From Candidatus Saccharimonadota bacterium (GTDB taxonomy: Bacteria; Patescibacteriota; Saccharimonadia; Saccharimonadales; Saccharimonadaceae), in the NCBI GenBank assembly GCA_017540545.1, contig JAFYAV010000002.1, positions 178,588 through 242,587 of the forward strand: a stretch of 64,000 nucleotides of DNA. The letters run 5' to 3'. A program made the position numbers and the translations under genes. Shown piece after piece: positions 42,935-50,760 of the stretch; the stretch's first letter is position 1; each line of letters starts with the position of its first letter. Under the pieces are notes generated by a model. It ran no database searches, had not been told where the DNA came from, and was given only the letters and a program-made list of their open reading frames with translations.

Positions 42935-44371
42935 TTAAATCTTTCGGATTTGAATTTGGTTCGTTCCGCCCTCTTCGTCTACTAAACCAGACACGACCAC
43001 AACAGTTAACTCTTTCTTATCTTCGTCAAGCTTCAAATAGCCGTTATTCTTCAATTCCTGTATAGTGTCAATCACATAATTATCATCATATTCGCGCACA
43101 TAAGCAGAATTGGCATAAGTTAAGGCCAACTGCCCCGCTACGCGCTTATTGCTTGTAATGGAAACCATCGGAATGTTCGGACGTTGCGCAGCAATTGCCT
43201 CTGCCGTTGCGCCACTCTTCGTTGCTACCGCAATCAAGTCTGCGCCAATCTGCTCCGCCAAACGTACCACAGCGCGCGAAATCGCATCGTAATTCTTGTA
43301 GTTCCCTATCGTGTCTTTGTCGATCGGCAAAATTCGTGAATTATCCTGCGTATACAAAATGACCTTTTTCATCTCTTTGATAGCTTCAATCGGGTATTTA
43401 CCGTTCGCTGTCTCGTCTGAAAGCATCACCGCATCGGCACCGAGCAATACTGCCGTTGCTACATCGGAAACTTCCGCACGGGTTGGACGCGGATTATCCA
43501 CCATACTCCCCAACATCTGCGTTGCTACGATACAAATCTTTGAATACTGGCGACATAGCGCAATTAACTTTCGTTGCACAATCGGCACAATCTCAGCACC
43601 CGCCTCATAGGCTAAATCACCACGCGCCACCATAATGCCGTCGCTCGCCTTCACGATTGCCTCCATTACCTCGTCGCTCTCGACCGCCTTCTTAGTTTCA
43701 ATCTTCGAGATAATTTGCGCCGTCGAGCCATGCGATACCATCACTTGGCGTAACTTATCTACGTCATCCGCGCACTGAATGAAGCTCATCGCCACAAAAT
43801 CAAAATCACGGCTCGCGCCAAATTCGATATCGGCCAAATCTTTCTCGGTAATAATATCGCCGCCCATATCAGTATCAGGCAAATTAATGCCCTTACGGCT
43901 CATTACGAAACCATCATTCTCGACCTTAATCTTGATTGCCGTCTTCGACACAATCTCCGTAGTCGTGCCTTCAATTTTTCCATCAAATAATAATACTGGT
44001 TCGCCTACTTTAACTTTCTCGGCCAAGTTGTATTGCACTGGCAAAACATTGCCGCCATCATGCTGCTTGCAGGCATAATCTAAAATTAGCTCGTCACCAG
44101 CCTTTACGTCGTAATGGTTATTCTGCACGTCGCCCAATCGGATCTTCGGTCCCTGCAAATCCTGCACAATCGCCACACTCTTGCCTCGCTCTGCCGCATA
44201 ACGCCGAATTGTCGCAATCTGTTGGTCACGCTCTTCATAAGTACCGTGACTAAAATTTAAGCGAAAACCGTTCACGCCCGCATAAACCATTTCTTTCAAC
44301 TTCTCTTCTGCAAATACGGATGGGCCAACCGTTGCCAAGATTTTAGTGCGTTTAAATAATTTAGTACTCAT
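42935..44371 (-). CDS. pyk: Pyruvate kinase
   Basis: TKILATVGPS, NGFRLNFSHG, IISKIETK, MVARGDLAYE; 478 aa. Confidence 0.95.
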   Translation of the reverse strand: MSTKLFKRTKILATVGPSVFAEEKLKEMVYAGVNGFRLNFSHGTYEERDQQIATIRRYAAERGKSVAIVQDLQGPKIRLGDVQNNHYDVKAGDELILDYACKQHDGGNVLPVQYNLAEKVKVGEPVLLFDGKIEGTTTEIVSKTAIKIKVENDGFVMSRKGINLPDTDMGGDIITEKDLADIEFGASRDFDFVAMSFIQCADDVDKLRQVMVSHGSTAQIISKIETKKAVESDEVMEAIVKASDGIMVARGDLAYEAGAEIVPIVQRKLIALCRQYSKICIVATQMLGSMVDNPRPTRAEVSDVATAVLLGADAVMLSDETANGKYPIEAIKEMKKVILYTQDNSRILPIDKDTIGNYKNYDAISRAVVRLAEQIGADLIAVATKSGATAEAIAAQRPNIPMVSITSNKRVAGQLALTYANSAYVREYDDNYVIDTIQELKNNGYLKLDEDKKELTVVVVSGLVDEEGGTNQIQIRKI

Positions 44372-44451
44372 ACCTTAATTATATCATTAGATAACCAACC
44401 AACATAAGCTCTTTAGACGACAAACCCGGCCTTCCGACCGGTTTTTAAGCA

Positions 44452-45031
44452 TGAAAATAGGGCGTCTGCCTACAGGTTTAAATATACACTGTAGCAGGCG
44501 CCCATTTAGCTTATTATTGGTGGTGCCGCTCATGCGGCTTTTTTAAAACAATGGACTTTTCCCCATCTTTCCTCCGACTTATCGATCTCTCTTACATCGG
44601 GCAACTGGTAGTCCTATTCAGGCGTCTGCGCCTCTCGAGCTGCCGCCATCGGCGGGCTAGCGCACTGGGTCTCTGAAGACTACCGTTAACAATGGTTTTT
44701 TAACCTCGCGCATCATCCCTTCCGGCGACGTGCGCGAGGTTCCTACGTCGCTTGTCCAGTCTTTTCACGCTTAGGAGCCTCCTCTCCCCCAAAAAATGGT
44801 CCGTCACCCGCCTTTGCGCGGGCCGCATGGATTATTGGATGATACTAGCTAGGCAGAGGTCTCAGCCTCGCCGCGATCCAAAATGCGAACTAGCACAATT
44901 CCGAGCTGTTCGCATAGCCTTATGCTCCGGGCGAGCGTGCCCTAAGCAAAAGTCCACCAATATGTTTCATTTACTCACCCCCTCCCTGGTGGTTACTTTG
45001 ACTGTTTCATAATACAATTTAACGGCCAACT
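44452..45031 (-). ncRNA. Candidate large structured ncRNA (~580 nt), family unknown; strand tentative
   Basis: No ORF of 60 aa or more on minus; consensus minus-strand promoter; long-range closing helices, pseudoknot candidate, many GC hairpins; long hairpin 44503-44460 followed by UAUUUUC. Confidence 0.45.
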
Positions 45032-45037
45032 GTGCCT

Positions 45038-45066
45038 ATAATACCACACTATCGACTAAATGTCAA
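45038..45066 (-). promoter_or_regulatory. Consensus promoter driving the large ncRNA candidate
   Basis: Minus strand TTGACA (45066-45061), exactly 17 nt, TATTAT (45043-45038). Confidence 0.6.
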
Positions 45067-45707
45067 TACTTTTTCTCAACTTTTTCGTACAAATTCCTAT
45101 TCTACAGATAAGAGTCCCCTGCCCTAACTCAAAAATCTAGCATAAAGATAGGCGCACTTCGTGCGCCTTAAATAAGTGACTTTGATTGGAAAATGTGCAA
45201 ATATAGCCCAAATAATACGCTATCTTGCTGCCGCTTTTTCGCAAGCACGGAAAGTGCCGCGTCACGCTTTTGTCCGCAGACTCAATAGGGCCGCTCCAGA
45301 CGCACAAATGCGCCTCCCTATGGTGAAGCGACTGGGCAATCAATCGCCCAAACGCTTCACCTCACGTAACGACCATCATTCCAACCAGAAGACCTATCGG
45401 CCTTCTACCATTTCGCCACTACGAAGCCCCATGGCTGGGGAATAATTTGTCAGCGCCAGATCGATTTCGAAAAACCGGCTCGTTTTTCATCTTTGGTAGC
45501 ATATTCTATCTTATTAAATATGCCATCAACGATGAACTCGAATCAGTTAGCAGACGAAATAGCTGACGCACGGCGGGCCTCATGTTAACAAAGCCGGCCG
45601 GTCCAATCATGAAAAGAACAGCCGCTTTTCGTAAGCGACTGTGTGATTATACATACCGCATCAAAATATGTCAACAGTTATATGTACTCTTAGTCGCCTA
45701 GTCAGCA

Positions 45708-45743: not shown

Positions 45744-48700
45744 ATGCGAAACCCCAACCACTTCCCTACGAGCCAAGAACGCGACAGCGAATCGGAGCTA
45801 CAGGAGGAAATAGATGAAGCGATGTCCGAAATACGTTCCGAGAAAATCGGCCATCGCCTAATAAGTGTTGCTAAAAATATCGTGGAAGGATTCGCAGCTA
45901 AGCCAATGCTGGACAGAATCAGCCAACTCTCGAACAGTGACAACTTACGCGACAAAGCCAAGCTTAAACAATATCAGTCAGGAGAAGGACGCATAGATTT
46001 ATCCAACGATAAAATATTAGAGGCACTATTGGATTCATATGATTCGTTCAATGAAGAGCGGCTAAAATCGCTACTCGCTAAAGGAGTTGAACCGAGCCGT
46101 ATCCTAAAGAACCAACATCTCCAGCAATTAAGCATAAGCAAGCTGGAAAACATGCTCACCCCGCCACCGGATGGCGAACCGTCACCCATGACCGAAGCGG
46201 CCACCAAAAAAGAAGCGACCGCTGCTTCATATAACAAGTTAATGTGGTCATTCTTCGACCAAGTTACTGCCGACGAGAAAACAAGAGAACAAATCATCGC
46301 AAATAGCGATAAAAAAGGCATCGCTAAACACGGAGACGACATATGTGACGAGCTGCTCAACAACTCGCCATATAGCGGTCGCGAAATATTCCGCGAACCC
46401 GAGCAAGTCGAGTTAGCCAAATCTAAGATAAATATACTCAAGCGACTTGGCTACGAATACTTCTCCGATGACGACCAGGAGGAAAAAGAACGCAAAGCGT
46501 CTAATATATTCGGCAGCGAAAATCTTGGCCATAAATATAGAACTTTAGGCGAGTTCGGCTTCTTAAATCAAGACGCGGTTAGTACGCTCTATCACGTCAA
46601 AGCTCAATTAATGAAAAGATACGCAAGTGGCGACTCTTCGGTCATTGCTGGCTACCACAAACTCCCCCCATTCATTCGCAATTCTTACAGCGAAAAAAGA
46701 TATGTGCAAAACTTTTTCCAAATTCCTCACGAACTCGAACCAAATAAAGACGACCAGGCGGCACAATATTGGCGTTCGCAAGACCAAAAGAACGGCTTCG
46801 ATACCATGGCCTTCATAGCATCAGTGTCGACTAATAATGAATCTTCCGTTAGCTGCCTCGACGAGGGCCAAATCAGTGATGATTTCTTCATGCCGGATAG
46901 AGGCCCAACTAGCCATATTATGAATCTATGCGACGCTAGTGCCCCTTACTCGAGACCGGAATACGGCGACGACGAGCGTGGTATTCTCACGATTCTAGCT
47001 AATAATACCGGGCGCATCCCGAACGCTAACGCAAAAGGATTGGTCAAGAACTGGGCGCAGCTACAAGATTACGATGCTGAAAAAGCCTATCTCGAATACG
47101 TTTCAAGAGGTGACGCTAGATTCAAGAGGAATAACCCAGCAACTGGCGAGCTAGAAGATATCTCGCTTTTCGACGAAAATGGCGATCCTACGGACGCTTT
47201 CTATGATTTTGACGCTATTAGCGCCTACGCTCCAAAGCGCTTCCTCTCGCGACTCGACGAAAACTGGCAGAGACACTTCTCGGGAGACGAACTTTATGGA
47301 CTTGATTTTCTTGATTCTCACCCTTCTCTCGATTGTCTTTCTTCAAAATCGGTTTTTAAGGATTGCCCGACTAAGGACTTTTTGGAAATAATCCGCAACA
47401 AACCCGAAACCGTCGAACAAATCCTTCAGCTTCAAGGCGAGAGTAGATCATCATCACAATTCCTCAAAGACGCTATTGGAATCGCAAGCAAAGATGCTTT
47501 GGATGCATGCTTTGACGATAATGGCCCAACGCCAGAATTCTACCGTCGCGCACTCGAAGCGTCCCCTCTCGACTCGATTAATTATATATGGGAACAAATA
47601 TTCATCCGCGAAAACGCAATCAACATTGACGCTCCGACTGCTAATCTCTGTGGACTATGGGCGGACGGCTGCAACTCATTGCCAGGTTTTGTCACTCGCC
47701 GCGAGACCTATATTGACGAAAATGGCAACAAGCTGAGGCGCCCTTGGACAGAAAACATCCCTAAATATTTCGACGAAAATGGCGCAAAACCAGAGTTTTG
47801 GCTTGAAACCCTCAAAGAAAGAAACCTCGCTTTTCTCCGCCAAACAGAACTCGAGCACGGCAGCGAATTTGGCTTCGATGCGCCAACAAGACATTGTTAC
47901 GAATTGCTCGCCAATCTCGGCTCGGCAGACTATCCGTCATTTTTTATCCAACCCGACGAAATATACATAGACGAAAATGGCAACGAACAGAGGCGCCCTT
48001 GGACAGAAAACATCCCCAAATATTTCGACGAAAATGGCGCAAAACTAGAATTTATCACCGACTGCTTACGCGCCAAGCAATTCAAAACAATAGAGCGCGT
48101 AAACTTCGATCCAAACAAATATACAAATCTTGACGATTTCACAAGACAGTTTATTACCTCTGTTGGTACAAATACAGAAACCACTATGCCCTTGGATAAA
48201 TCGAACATCATCTTTGCTCTGACAAAATTCATCACCAAAGACGCCGTCGACTGGAATAAGGCATCAAAACATGAACAAGAAATCCGTGAAGCTTTCTCGG
48301 AGAACGCAACGAAAGACATGGCGCTCCGTTCCCTAAGAAAAGCATACGAGGGCTATCTTTTCAGCAAAGACACTTCTGACTTCCCTATCGGCCTCAAAGC
48401 CCTGTCCGACTACATGCATAGCAAGGGTGGAGCCGGTCCACTCACGCAAATTGAAGCGTTTTTAGATTTCGCTGGAGCACTTGGAGAAGCGAATGATGGC
48501 GGATGCAAAGAGTTGACGTCAAAACTAGAGAAAAAAATGCAACAATATCGCTGGAGTAACCAAGAAAAGACAAACTTCTACGCTATCTCCGCCGAAGTGC
48601 TTCAAGCTAGCCCAGATCTATACAAAGAATTAGCATCGTTGCTAGAAAACATCCCTAACCAAGAAGATTTCAGCAAGTTCACAACGGACATATATCCACT

Positions 48701-50594
48701 ATTCCGCGCCAAACTCGCCCTACTAAGACAATACGATTATTCAGGCGATCACGTTGGTCACGGATATAGTACCGCATACTACAACCCCGACGATATTGAA
48801 AAAGTCAAGGAACAGCTACACGGCGCAATAGGCGTACTTAATCTAGGCCAAAACTCCCCAAGTCGACGCCAGCAAGGTATGGAAATAGTCCGCAAGAATA
48901 TGCTCAAAGATATCACTGAACTATTTAAGGATAAATTAAACATTAGCGAAGGGGCTATTCCGAACGAATTCTACAAAAACGATGTCAGAGTTATTCAAGA
49001 CATGACATTGTATTTGAGCTTCATAAATAATCCCGATTCATACAAGAAAAACTTAATTAGTCTATATTTGGCACTGCTACTCGACAAGAATGGTGGCTGG
49101 AATAAGCTTCGCAATGGTGAAACGGTTCCGGTTGAAAAACTACTAGACATCACCCCTCCCGAGATAGAAGCTATCCAAAACGCCTTCGAGATGAGCCGCA
49201 AAAATAATCCCGTCAATCACGAAAATACCCGTATCGACACCGACGACCCAGATCGCCTACGAGCCTTCCAGGCCGCCCTCCAACAACAAGCCAGCTCGAC
49301 CCGTACCGGTAGCATCATAACCGTTGACGAGCATCTCCGAAATCTCGCCGCAAATGCAGACGAGTTAAGAGACCCAGATGCGCTGTCGGAAATCGATCGC
49401 CAAAGAGCCGAGATGCTTGAGCAATATTCTGCCAGACAAATTCGGACCGTCTCTAGCAAACTATGGGGGCGTATAAGCGGAAAAAATATACCGCTCAACG
49501 ATGAGGAATCGATAATCGCAGATAAACTAACCGGCATTCTCGCGAGCCAAAATATCGAACTCACCCCAGATAATATTGTCGCTTATCTCCAAAGAGGCTT
49601 CAACGCCATCGAAGCGTCAAACAAAATCCAACAAATCCTAGAAGGATCCCACGTAACTGACGCTATTAATGATTTTCAGCGAATATTAACGCCGCCAGAC
49701 GAAATCATCAAGATATTTAACGATAAACTAGAACAAGATTTCCAGCCGCTATCAGGCGCGATGGCAATTGGCTCCGACTTAAACTACCTAGAGAATCTCT
49801 TAAACAAATACGAAGATCGGCTAACGAAAGAAGAGATGGATGCCGCACAGGAGTATATCGGTTCTATTAGAACTAAAATGGCCGAGCTAGAGTCGCTCAG
49901 TGGCGAAATAACCAAAAAATTCGAAACTATCGCAAAAGATCTAGACGGCGTTGCCGGATCTGATGGCCTAAAATCCATCATAGAAAATATCGCGAATATT
50001 GCAAAAGGCGGCGACTCAGAGCAGATTCTAACTACAACTTTCACCAATGATTTCGTTATCATTCTGGAAAACATGCGCGCATGTCTGAGTGCTTATACTA
50101 AAGGTTGCAATAATGACACAAATCTATCCTTTGCCGAAGGCTATAGATTCTATCTTTACACTAGCAATGAAATGTGGGCGGGAAGCAGCAATAGCGTCTC
50201 GGACGAAATTGTCTATTTTATCCCAGGCGAAAAAGATGGCAATAAGTCAATGGATTTTGTCATGGATAGAATTTACGGTCAAAAGAACAAGGACATCTTC
50301 GATAATCATGTCAAAACAATGGTCCAAAAGGCATCTGAACTCAAAAAACAATTCCCGGAAACTCCGATTAGGGTCTTTATTCCGGACGGCACAATGCAAA
50401 GCTGCTGCGTGAGTGTAACTGCCGAAGATGTTGCTACTAGAATTGGGCTACCAGAAGGCGCTACCGCCGAAGCAGTCACCGAAAAAACGTTCACCGTTCC
50501 AGAAACCAGTTTCGGAGACCACTACATAGAATTTGGCGAAAACGGCAGGACTCCAGGCCCCCGCCCCGTTAGTGGTATCGAGATAATACTATAG
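45744..50594 (+). CDS. Giant orphan protein (1616 aa), no recognisable domain, internal repeats
   Basis: Uninterrupted 4.85-kb ORF; acidic, mostly helical-looking sequence; recurrent FDENG-x3-EF motif; no signal peptide or TM seen. Confidence 0.8.
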   Translation: MRNPNHFPTSQERDSESELQEEIDEAMSEIRSEKIGHRLISVAKNIVEGFAAKPMLDRISQLSNSDNLRDKAKLKQYQSGEGRIDLSNDKILEALLDSYDSFNEERLKSLLAKGVEPSRILKNQHLQQLSISKLENMLTPPPDGEPSPMTEAATKKEATAASYNKLMWSFFDQVTADEKTREQIIANSDKKGIAKHGDDICDELLNNSPYSGREIFREPEQVELAKSKINILKRLGYEYFSDDDQEEKERKASNIFGSENLGHKYRTLGEFGFLNQDAVSTLYHVKAQLMKRYASGDSSVIAGYHKLPPFIRNSYSEKRYVQNFFQIPHELEPNKDDQAAQYWRSQDQKNGFDTMAFIASVSTNNESSVSCLDEGQISDDFFMPDRGPTSHIMNLCDASAPYSRPEYGDDERGILTILANNTGRIPNANAKGLVKNWAQLQDYDAEKAYLEYVSRGDARFKRNNPATGELEDISLFDENGDPTDAFYDFDAISAYAPKRFLSRLDENWQRHFSGDELYGLDFLDSHPSLDCLSSKSVFKDCPTKDFLEIIRNKPETVEQILQLQGESRSSSQFLKDAIGIASKDALDACFDDNGPTPEFYRRALEASPLDSINYIWEQIFIRENAINIDAPTANLCGLWADGCNSLPGFVTRRETYIDENGNKLRRPWTENIPKYFDENGAKPEFWLETLKERNLAFLRQTELEHGSEFGFDAPTRHCYELLANLGSADYPSFFIQPDEIYIDENGNEQRRPWTENIPKYFDENGAKLEFITDCLRAKQFKTIERVNFDPNKYTNLDDFTRQFITSVGTNTETTMPLDKSNIIFALTKFITKDAVDWNKASKHEQEIREAFSENATKDMALRSLRKAYEGYLFSKDTSDFPIGLKALSDYMHSKGGAGPLTQIEAFLDFAGALGEANDGGCKELTSKLEKKMQQYRWSNQEKTNFYAISAEVLQASPDLYKELASLLENIPNQEDFSKFTTDIYPLFRAKLALLRQYDYSGDHVGHGYSTAYYNPDDIEKVKEQLHGAIGVLNLGQNSPSRRQQGMEIVRKNMLKDITELFKDKLNISEGAIPNEFYKNDVRVIQDMTLYLSFINNPDSYKKNLISLYLALLLDKNGGWNKLRNGETVPVEKLLDITPPEIEAIQNAFEMSRKNNPVNHENTRIDTDDPDRLRAFQAALQQQASSTRTGSIITVDEHLRNLAANADELRDPDALSEIDRQRAEMLEQYSARQIRTVSSKLWGRISGKNIPLNDEESIIADKLTGILASQNIELTPDNIVAYLQRGFNAIEASNKIQQILEGSHVTDAINDFQRILTPPDEIIKIFNDKLEQDFQPLSGAMAIGSDLNYLENLLNKYEDRLTKEEMDAAQEYIGSIRTKMAELESLSGEITKKFETIAKDLDGVAGSDGLKSIIENIANIAKGGDSEQILTTTFTNDFVIILENMRACLSAYTKGCNNDTNLSFAEGYRFYLYTSNEMWAGSSNSVSDEIVYFIPGEKDGNKSMDFVMDRIYGQKNKDIFDNHVKTMVQKASELKKQFPETPIRVFIPDGTMQSCCVSVTAEDVATRIGLPEGATAEAVTEKTFTVPETSFGDHYIEFGENGRTPGPRPVSGIEIIL
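47709..48052 (+). repeat. Intragenic direct duplication (two ~90-nt near-identical blocks 255 nt apart)
   Basis: 47709-47797 vs 47964-48052, roughly 90 percent identical by eye; encode YIDENGN(KL/EQ)RRPWTENIPKYFDENGAK(P/L)EF. Confidence 0.85.
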
Positions 50595-50684: not shown

Positions 50685-50760
50685 TGGTGATCACGGCGGG
50701 ATTCGAACCCGCGATTGCCAGGATGAAAACCTGGAGTCCTAACCACTAGACGACGTGACC
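50685..50760 (-). tRNA. tRNA-Glu (anticodon UUC), CCA encoded
   Basis: Reverse complement GGTCACGTCGTCTAGTGGTTAGGACTCCAGGTTTTCATCCTGGCAATCGCGGGTTCGAATCCCGCCGTGATCACCA; anticodon loop TTTTCAT. Confidence 0.95.

Follow-up and report, generated by a model that had tools for sequence, protein, structure and literature searches.

RNAIII of Staphylococcus aureus, Spot 42/SpfP, SgrS/SgrT, and SR1/SR1P are dual-function small RNAs (sRNAs), in which the peptides Hld and SpfP comprise 26 and 15 amino acids (aa), respectively. The mRNAs of hok-type type I toxins, which are inhibited by fold-back, carry an open reading frame (ORF) for a membrane toxin of about 19 to 50 aa and are accompanied by an antisense RNA. 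ROOL RNAs have an average length of 581 nucleotides (nt), were first found in cow rumen metagenomes, adopt a complex multi-stem fold (Weinberg et al. 2017, PMC5737381), and often adjoin tRNA genes (PMC5737381). Here, we analyze a folded-RNA unit of ~580 nt, located on the minus strand between tRNA-Glu and pyk in a rumen Saccharibacteria genome, within a stretch of 64,000 nt (assembly GCA_017540545.1, contig JAFYAV010000002.1, positions 178,588 to 242,587) that we call the window and whose coordinates are used throughout. We put the probability at roughly 55% that this unit is a stand-alone dual-function RNA gene of a lineage-specific, fast-diversifying family, restricted to the tRNA-Glu/pyk interval in one genus-level clade of rumen Saccharibacteria. 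The unit is an autonomous, selected, and structured RNA, in which a 3' segment pairs onto codons 3 to 6 of a 5'-proximal frame, ORF1, and the Shine-Dalgarno (SD) sequence of this frame, SD1, is held in a hairpin. Judged by its sequence, it represents an undescribed RNA family, unusual in its hypervariable cassette body, in the tandem arrangement of units at one hotspot, and in its multiple ribosome-binding sites.

In kind, the unit appears closest to dual-function RNAs such as RNAIII. Both are independent, highly structured RNAs on the scale of 500 nt, with numerous hairpins and a helix that connects the 5' and 3' regions over a long range, and RNAs of this type likewise have a short ORF near the 5' end, a strong promoter, and an intrinsic terminator. 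However, RNAIII and the unit have no sequence or model similarity. RNAIII exposes C-rich loops that pair with SD regions, whereas the unit shows G-rich SD-like sites and start codons. Unlike RNAIII, the unit also has a hypervariable body that is exchanged between strains, and units stand in tandem at a single locus.

WIN denotes the window's own unit and WIN-type its true homologs; other types (L001-type, L003-type, and D-type) are unalignable with WIN. Relatives of the window's genome are rumen and gut metagenome-assembled genomes (MAGs) of Nanosyncoccaceae type. In a blastn search with the unit, 63 syntenic genome loci gave matches to the promoter alone, and the same was true of 46 syntenic Saccharibacteria loci. 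WIN-type homologs were found by a metagenome promoter-pattern scan and by look-ups of near-identical pyk proteins, and comprise L132 (96.9% identical), L134 (94.4%), L116 to L121, L133, and L094 (~72%). Between WIN and the nearest species (L001, pyk 96% at the aa level), only 0.49 of the pyk fourfold-degenerate sites are identical, so that neutral sites are near saturation and unalignable interiors are not by themselves proof of nonhomology or absence. L001, L003, L004, and the D-type (L005 to L008 and L046) have units in the same place, with the same kind of promoter, an SD and a short ORF, followed by ~500 nt that are rich in GC and free of ORFs, a GC hairpin plus U-run, and then the promoter of pyk. 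The promoter of these sister units often reads AAAAAGTATTGAC-N5-GTCAA...TGnTAWTAT. Further unrelated types (L131, L136, L137, and L139) each begin with an SD-led micro-ORF. In all, the tRNA-Glu/pyk interval contains one or two units in a single clade of rumen Saccharibacteria, and in more distant relatives tRNA-Glu lies ~90 nt from pyk with no unit.

Promoter and terminator are kept across the sister units despite the unalignable interiors. In the window, the promoter (45038-45080) consists of an A-rich upstream tract, a -35 element TTGACA (45066-45061) that lies within the imperfect inverted repeat TTGACATTTAGTCGA, the extended -10 element TGgTATTAT ending at 45038, and a spacer of 17 nt between the two. 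With a score of 11/12 plus the TG, it bears out the minus-strand TTGACA-17-TATTAT promoter at 45066-45038 that an earlier note on this DNA, made by reading the letters, had recognized. The same promoter type is kept in L001, the D-type, L094, L116, and L131. As deduced from promoter spacing, transcription would start at ~45032, and the resulting 5' leader (44998-45032) forms a predicted hairpin (45029-45021 with 45006-44998). Separately, contig L066 (Logan SRR11784291) was observed to carry an identical unit followed by pyk and pgk; it begins at window position 45025, which is 7 nt past the predicted start of the transcript, possibly by a coincidence of assembly. Samples in which this strain occurs include ERZ12202683, ERZ28653461, SRR11784291, and SRR33718320. 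At the 3' end, the long GC hairpin described earlier (44503-44460) is indeed followed by UAUUUUC; it is imperfect, has ~16 bp, and forms an intrinsic terminator (44452-44503). L001 has a homologous terminator hairpin with compensatory changes and U-runs, and analogous terminators exist in every sister unit. With a promoter and a terminator of its own, the unit is independent of its neighbor genes, as is characteristic of dual-function sRNAs.

The unit is encoded on the minus strand, as promoter, terminator, SD/ORF modules, alifold energies, and counts of G-U versus A-C all agree. In each of three alignments, the sense strand had the lower alifold energy (-74.8 versus -66.9, -161.7 versus -142.9, and -215.2 versus -203.1). 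G-U cells exceeded A-C cells by 86:40, 117:12, and 100:11 in three alignments; as folding was predicted for the sense strand, these counts are biased. Ten units together have 38 sites combining an SD with a start codon on the sense strand and 8 on the antisense strand, compared to ~15 expected from shuffles. The minimum free energy (MFE) of the minus strand is -215.9 kcal/mol (z, -4.4 versus dinucleotide shuffles), which, together with a core GC content of 0.57, places the structure claimed by the earlier note beyond chance. The plus strand folds well too (z, -5.7), so folding energy alone cannot assign the strand. The note's choice of the minus strand, which it had based mainly on the promoter, is thus retained, and sole reliance on the promoter is superseded by the concurring terminator, SD/ORF modules, and G-U/A-C counts.

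ORF1 (MKHIGGLLLRARSPGA; 44920-44970, minus strand) comprises 16 codons plus a stop, running from the ATG at 44970 to the TAA at 44920; this is the SD-preceded 16-codon frame of the earlier note, whose start had been placed at about 44972. It is preceded by GGAGGUGA, which is kept in all homologs. The peptide is retained in L134 (MKIIGG...), L116 (MKSNGGQLLRGEHPL), and L094 (MKNIGGLLIRKRSPDTL) though the nucleotides differ, codon differences including Arg CGC to AGA between WIN and L094 as well as TTG/TTA, AGG/AGA, and TCG/TCA. ORF1-like peptides are also found in unalignable types, namely MKSAEGIFIRGRLPN in the L001-type, MKKHGILLAPEHPE in the D-type, and ...RLIFKTHPHPL in L003, and they share the pattern (hydrophobic)3-[RK]-x-[RHE]-x-P near the stop. 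In the L139 peptide, MINLSHPP, the common feature is limited to the HP-before-stop ending. Six variants of the L001-type block IFIRGRLPN contain four synonymous third-position polymorphisms and one replacement, with N-terminal indels in frame. Among six aligned D-type sequences the sole substitution in ORF1 is synonymous, and L006 has a 1-nt deletion. By these comparisons ORF1 is under purifying selection at the peptide level, and thus the unit carries a selected small ORF as dual-function sRNAs do. As ORF1 is conserved as a peptide with mainly synonymous polymorphism, the RNA is probably dual-function rather than simply noncoding. The notion of a noncoding unit therefore stands as far as the separate promoter and terminator and the structure are concerned, and gives way at the 5' frame, which is conserved as a peptide across sister units. 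No minus-strand ORF of 60 aa or more exists, as was stated earlier; the longest are of 48 and 42 aa. An 86-aa ORF on the opposite strand (44752-45012, plus) has no Pfam match and is not homologous to the equivalent ORF in L094.

SD1, GGGAGGGGGUGA, occupies the loop and 3' arm of a hairpin (44973-44993) with a CACC/GGUG stem; this stem is invariant, and GGAGGUGA is retained, in all five WIN-type sequences. The 5' strand of the closing helix P1, UAUUGGUGG (44954-44962), overlaps ORF1 codons 3 to 6, and its 3' strand, CCACCAAUA (44515-44523), forms the segment just ahead of the terminator. P1, pairing 44962-44954 with 44523-44515 over 9 to 11 bp, is present in the MFE structures of WIN and of L094. 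At the next outer (10th) position there is A.A in WIN, U-A in L134, and A-U in L094. For L116, a hand-drawn P1 is feasible (AAUGGU-G-GAC / GUC-A-ACCAUU, one U-A pair being exchanged for A-U), but the L116 MFE structure pairs the P1 3' segment with the 5' leader instead. The closing helix had been proposed earlier in a split form. Homologs back the contiguous UAUUGGUGG/CCACCAAUA helix, and the split version lacks support because its AAAAGUCCA arm is deleted or altered in L094 and L116. Adjoining the P1 3' strand is the hairpin GCCGC-AUGA-GCGGC, found where the earlier note had seen it (44538-44525, minus strand); it is the same in L132, L134, and L094, with the loop AUAA in the last, and is replaced by a longer hairpin in L116.

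To assess covariation, we projected the MFE structure of WIN on the five-sequence WIN-type alignment A4, using as controls 500 shuffles and structures with partner columns slid by 1 to 3. In A4, 86.3% of cells were paired, compared to 82.7% in shuffles, and 29 pairs were altered on both sides, compared to 10.8 ± 2.7 in shuffles and 3 to 11 in the slid controls; for neither quantity did any of the 500 shuffles reach the observed value. The best-supported elements are the leader hairpin, hairpins H2, H3, and H5, the helix 44829-44825/44770-44766, and the domain 44687-44603. The leader hairpin (helix 1) has compensatory changes in L094 and L134. In H2 (AUGCGAAC...GUUCGCAU; helix 6, 44883-44915, minus strand), the basal stem is kept and the apical stem varies, with AGC/GCU in WIN, GACG/CGUC in L094, and CAG/CUG in L116. 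The helix CAUGC/GCGUG (helix 10; 44829-44825 with 44770-44766, enclosing H3 and a second SD in 44766-44829 on the minus strand) is 100% paired, including a G-U to A-U change, and H3 (helix 11, 44823-44806) has two compensatory pairs in L094. The most conserved element is H5, AACCUCGCGCACGUCGCC-GGAA-GGGAUGAUGCGCGAGGUU (helix 15; 44702-44741, minus strand), with 11/17 pairs invariant, two one-sided changes to G-U, and a bulge turned into a pair via an indel in L116 and L094. Nine pairs are altered on both sides in the long three-part stem domain (helices 16 to 19; 44603-44687, minus strand), which ends in CCGCC-GAU-GGCGG. A further hairpin (44835-44881, minus strand) is variable and dispensable, being shortened in L132 and L134 and mostly deleted in L094 and L116.

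Set against these data, the structural claims of the earlier note fared unevenly. Its 44741-44702 stem is H5, the best conserved hairpin, with 10 to 11 bp and a GGAA apex. Of the interleaved helices proposed for 44930-44883, the AUGCGAAC/GUUCGCAU stem (44915-44883) persists, and pairing of the pseudoknot arm CCGGAGC/GCUCGG is lost in L094 and L116. Three homologs (L094, L116, and L134) disrupt the long-range pair GCUUAGG/CCUAAGC, which is discarded. Covariation in relatives is thus present in A4, where compensatory pairs exceed the controls, and does not extend to GCUUAGG/CCUAAGC, CCGGAGC/GCUCGG, or the AAAAGUCCA arm.

Downstream of ORF1, additional ribosome-binding sites recur. SD2, GGGGGAGAGGAGG (about 44790-44778, minus strand), lies inside the CAUGC/GCGUG helix and precedes the GUG start of ORF2 (MKRLDKRRRNLAHVAGRDDARG; 22 codons, 44700-44768, minus strand). 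The start toggles between GUG and AUG (AUG in L134 and L116), the SD is retained, and L094 has an in-frame 3-nt indel; an MKR[LF] start is seen in the L001-type too, with the rest of the peptide not conserved, and the coding status of ORF2 is uncertain. SD3, GGAGG (44575-44571), leads a 7-codon mini-ORF, MGKSPLF (44566-44543; together 44543-44575, minus strand), and L094 has an SD and a short ORF (MI*) in the same place. Most of the SD-plus-start sites open mini-ORFs of 2 to 8 codons, some of them directly followed by a stable hairpin.

The mode of evolution of the family points to selection acting on exchangeable bodies. WIN and L116 are 98.3% identical in the upstream unit and share 0.93 of their pyk fourfold sites, and the terminator and pyk promoter region differ at few positions, whereas identity drops to 0.62 to 0.71 from SD1 up to a point just short of the terminator. 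On this comparison, the WIN/L116 interior is a sharply bounded mosaic, swapped between near-identical strains. Of the differences among WIN, L132, and L134, about 40 lie within the first 270 nt and three in the remaining 310 nt. D-type RNAs are 0.90 to 0.93 identical, compared to 0.75 to 0.83 at pyk fourfold sites, which indicates purifying selection; their indels are not multiples of three, and the copy number of a module [SD-AUG CUC UAG-hairpin] varies between strains (alignment A1). Mosaic interiors, D-type selection, indel pattern, and module copy number together argue for functional RNA genes with cassette-exchanged bodies rather than drifting spacers.

Several further features of these types were observed. 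L046 has a tandem duplication of ~150 nt, and an additional repeat of ~37 nt is present in L007, L008, and L046. L001, L131, and the D-type, which are otherwise unalignable, have in common a hairpin GCCAYGCGCAACGCRUGGC with compensatory C-G to U-A changes. It follows an SD-led mini-ORF of 2 to 5 codons ending in UAG, directly in L001 (L001:3270-3300) and L131 and 6 nt later in the D-type. L131 (L131:95-1085) is a unit variant of about 950 nt.

A second unit lies directly upstream in the window (45674-45145, minus strand). Its promoter is a perfect TTGACA-17-TATAAT (45674-45646), its RNA of ~500 nt is ORF-poor (MFE z, -7.2) and has a 5'-3' closing helix of its own, GAUUGGA/UCCAAUC, and its terminator lies at 45168-45150. 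This unit is 98 to 99% identical in sister strains, has no homolog elsewhere, and has no SD-led 5' ORF. L094 also has two complete units in tandem, one of L003-type followed by one of WIN-type. A self-search of the window detected no further copies of the unit, and a scan of the window detected no other units with a similar promoter and SD.

How might such an RNA work? We envisage that translation of ORF1 would take place largely in the course of transcription, while the P1 3' strand, some 440 nt further on, has yet to be made. Once this strand is transcribed, the RNA would close on itself and ORF1 would be shut off, the SD1 hairpin and P1 presumably masking the initiation region in the finished RNA. 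The closed multi-hairpin RNA, with exposed G-rich SD-like sites, might then act in trans, either as a riboregulator or by engaging ribosomes or 30S subunits via these sites. Indirectly, an activity of the RNA itself is suggested by structure conserved outside the ORF and by purifying selection on the D-type. Given the separate promoter of pyk and the tandem arrangement of units, we consider a cis role for pyk unlikely. Several points weigh against the dual-function interpretation. The covariation derives from five sequences representing only three independent lineages, the tested structure came from the window's own MFE prediction, and several predicted pairs are broken in close variants. ORF1 is frameshifted in one L001-type MAG (L001) and one D-type MAG (L006), and, given its overlap with P1, some of its conservation could reflect constraint on the RNA. 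The transcript ends, at ~45032 and ~44452, are deduced from sequence motifs. Finally, the searches made identified no target, partner protein, or complementary sequence, and a hypervariable body would be unusual for a trans-acting regulator with conserved targets.

Part of the data would also be accounted for by a micropeptide gene with a long structured 3' untranslated region. Only the ORF1 peptide of 15 to 17 aa would then matter, as a small effector or signaling peptide, and the following ~450 nt would mainly stabilize the mRNA or be tolerated, which would explain their free variation. In agreement with this, ORF1 is the only element kept across all sequence types, and the interior is unalignable between types and swapped between near-identical strains. 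We nevertheless regard this explanation as unlikely, considering that the D-type interior is more conserved than synonymous sites, that hairpins stay paired through compensatory changes, and that length and high GC content are maintained in a reduced, AT-leaning genome. Moreover, P1 would mask ORF1 in the finished RNA.

The constant position of the units directly upstream of pyk and in the same orientation raises the question of a cis-acting leader or attenuator, in which translation of ORF1 or stalling on it remodels the leader and decides on read-through into pyk and pgk. A leader ORF ending in R-x-R-x-P or HP and followed by a terminator resembles ribosome-dependent attenuators. However, the terminator is succeeded by a second small hairpin (44441-44426) and the promoter of pyk, TAAAGAGCUUAUG...TGATATAAT (44386-44378; both outside the RNA, 44372-44441, minus strand), and the conserved extended -10 of pyk, TGATATAAT, is present in identical form ahead of pyk in relatives without any unit, contrary to what is expected of an attenuator. 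As this element lies only 6 nt upstream of the pyk ATG at 44371, the pyk mRNA probably has no leader or a very short one. Further evidence against attenuation comes from the distance of ~415 nt between the ORF1 stop and the terminator hairpin, from the two complete units, each with promoter and terminator, standing in tandem in L094 and in the window, and from the lack of such a leader in most related genomes. Control of pyk in cis is, in our view, improbable.

By motif alone, R-x-R plus Pro in ORF1 resembles known arrest motifs (PMC8298421, PMC12583479). As in arrest peptides, an SD-led 5' ORF contains R-A-R (WIN), R-K-R (L094), or R-G-R (L001-type), followed by Pro near the stop; in contrast to these systems, the unit has neither a resistance gene nor any other regulated ORF downstream, and the motif is not universal, being replaced by R-G-E in L116 and A-P-E in the D-type. 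With only a slim chance of being correct, we also consider that the units could be a new class of translation-coupled RNA devices of ultra-small episymbionts. A conserved arrest-type micro-ORF, (hydrophobic)3-R-x-R/E-x-P or HP near the stop, would report the state of the ribosome, such as a small molecule bound in the tunnel or proline/EF-P limitation, and would thereby control closing of a large, strain-specific body. The body, with several ribosome landing pads (SDs with mini-ORFs of 2 to 8 codons followed by hairpins), would capture or release ribosomes or form a higher-order particle, and the force behind its cassette diversification would be conflict with phages, hosts, or competitors.

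Could the dual-function candidate instead be an ornate RNA like ROOL or GOLLD, a large RNA linked to tRNA genes or mobile DNA, which functions through its three-dimensional or oligomeric architecture and has diverged too far for existing models? A length of ~580 nt, the rumen and gut origin, and proximity to a tRNA gene, with tRNA-Glu bounding the variable hotspot, fit the description of ROOL (PMC5737381), as does the closed multi-hairpin fold. Covariance models of ROOL, GOLLD, OLE, raiA, and HEARO, however, gave no match at permissive thresholds for any sequence type (E ≤ 10 for the window, E ≤ 5 for sister loci). Unlike ROOL, the unit has no phage context: a blastn search of the unit against 50,697 phage genomes gave no match, and the promoter pattern had 0 matches in IMG/VR viral contigs. 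The ROOL consensus spans phyla, whereas these units are unalignable between sister species. In addition, the unit has a conserved micro-ORF and ribosome-binding sites, whereas ROOL is not known to have a conserved translated micro-ORF. An ornate RNA of this kind is therefore a rather remote prospect.

That no known RNA family is involved, as had been suspected by eye, was borne out by searches with Rfam 15. No family was detected at the gathering threshold on the whole window or at E ≤ 10 on 44300-45350, including ROOL, GOLLD, OLE, raiA, HEARO, and tmRNA, and six sister loci (E ≤ 5) yielded only tRNAs and chance-level matches. The combination of a 5'-3' helix with a neighboring hairpin and an ORF in the interior invites a tmRNA-like reading. 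ARAGORN detected only three tRNAs in the window, the hairpin beside P1 has a 4-nt loop, and the reading was rejected because there is no T-loop, no CCA after P1, and no model match. A CsrB-like protein sponge was rejected as well, the count of GGA in the unit not being above the expectation from base composition according to a rough estimate. As in hok-type mRNAs, pairing of the 3' end with the 5' initiation region, present in the unit as P1, closes the RNA and should block a small 5' ORF. The unit differs from hok in that ORF1, with 16 aa in WIN and 15 to 17 aa overall, is mostly polar or basic after GGLLL rather than a hydrophobic membrane peptide, in that the body is far longer, and in that no antisense RNA gene is apparent and no plus-strand promoter-like site was found inside the unit; a hok-like type I toxin-antitoxin system was thus also rejected.

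A decaying protein gene or neutral spacer, of which promoter, SD, start codon, and terminator are remnants while the rest drifts, would be in keeping with the resemblance of ORF1 to the N terminus of a secreted protein (MK..hydrophobic), with a GC content closer to coding than to intergenic DNA, and with interiors unalignable between species, but it is extremely improbable given the absence of a long ORF in any of about 12 sequence types, indels not in threes, a D-type evolving more slowly than synonymous sites, compensatory pair changes well above controls, an opposite-strand ORF that is not conserved, and no Pfam or NCBIfam match of the unit, with tblastx against relatives at chance level only.

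Downstream of the unit, pyk and then pgk lie on the same strand; upstream of the two RNA units follow an ORF of 1616 aa and then tRNA-Glu. The core GC content of 0.57 compares with 0.30 to 0.44 in the window's other ORF-free gaps. The gene order murG, tRNA-Glu, unit(s), pyk is found in L001, L122 to L124, and L094. The 1616-aa ORF (45744-50594, plus strand), between the RNA units and tRNA-Glu(ttc) (50685-50760, minus strand), is present in the window lineage only, and therefore the tRNA-Glu flank is a variable insertion hotspot. This ORF has no Pfam, NCBIfam, or PADLOC match, and PADLOC and NCBIfam searches for a defense-island context, covering this giant ORF and a 206-aa ORF, gave nothing credible.

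The promoter type also occurs with an unrelated RNA. L067:885-1191 (minus strand) and 43 similar metagenome loci (L068 to L115), all on metagenome-derived contigs, specify a terminator-ended RNA of ~250 nt (z, -4.7) with C-rich CCCUCC/ACCCCC stretches and a -35 element inside TTGAC-N5-GTCAA. It has no Rfam match and is possibly another undescribed noncoding RNA. The palindrome TTGAC-N5-GTCAA, common to both RNA classes, may be an operator.

Saccharibacteria have genomes of about 1 Mb with very little spare DNA. Even so, this lineage maintains 0.6 to 1.3 kb of GC-rich, structured RNA genes, apparently with strong promoters, at a single hotspot. The family combines a large conserved fold, a selected micro-ORF of 15 to 17 aa with extra ribosome-binding sites, and cassette-like replacement of the body. 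Our search of the literature on structured or small RNAs in Saccharibacteria retrieved nothing relevant. Should the RNA act in trans, it would be the earliest known riboregulator from the candidate phyla radiation, as far as the literature searched shows, and its body would exemplify diversifying selection on RNA. A testable sensor would be gained if ORF1 proved to be an arrest peptide. At minimum, the family offers a concrete new target for RNA-family curators and for rumen metatranscriptome studies.

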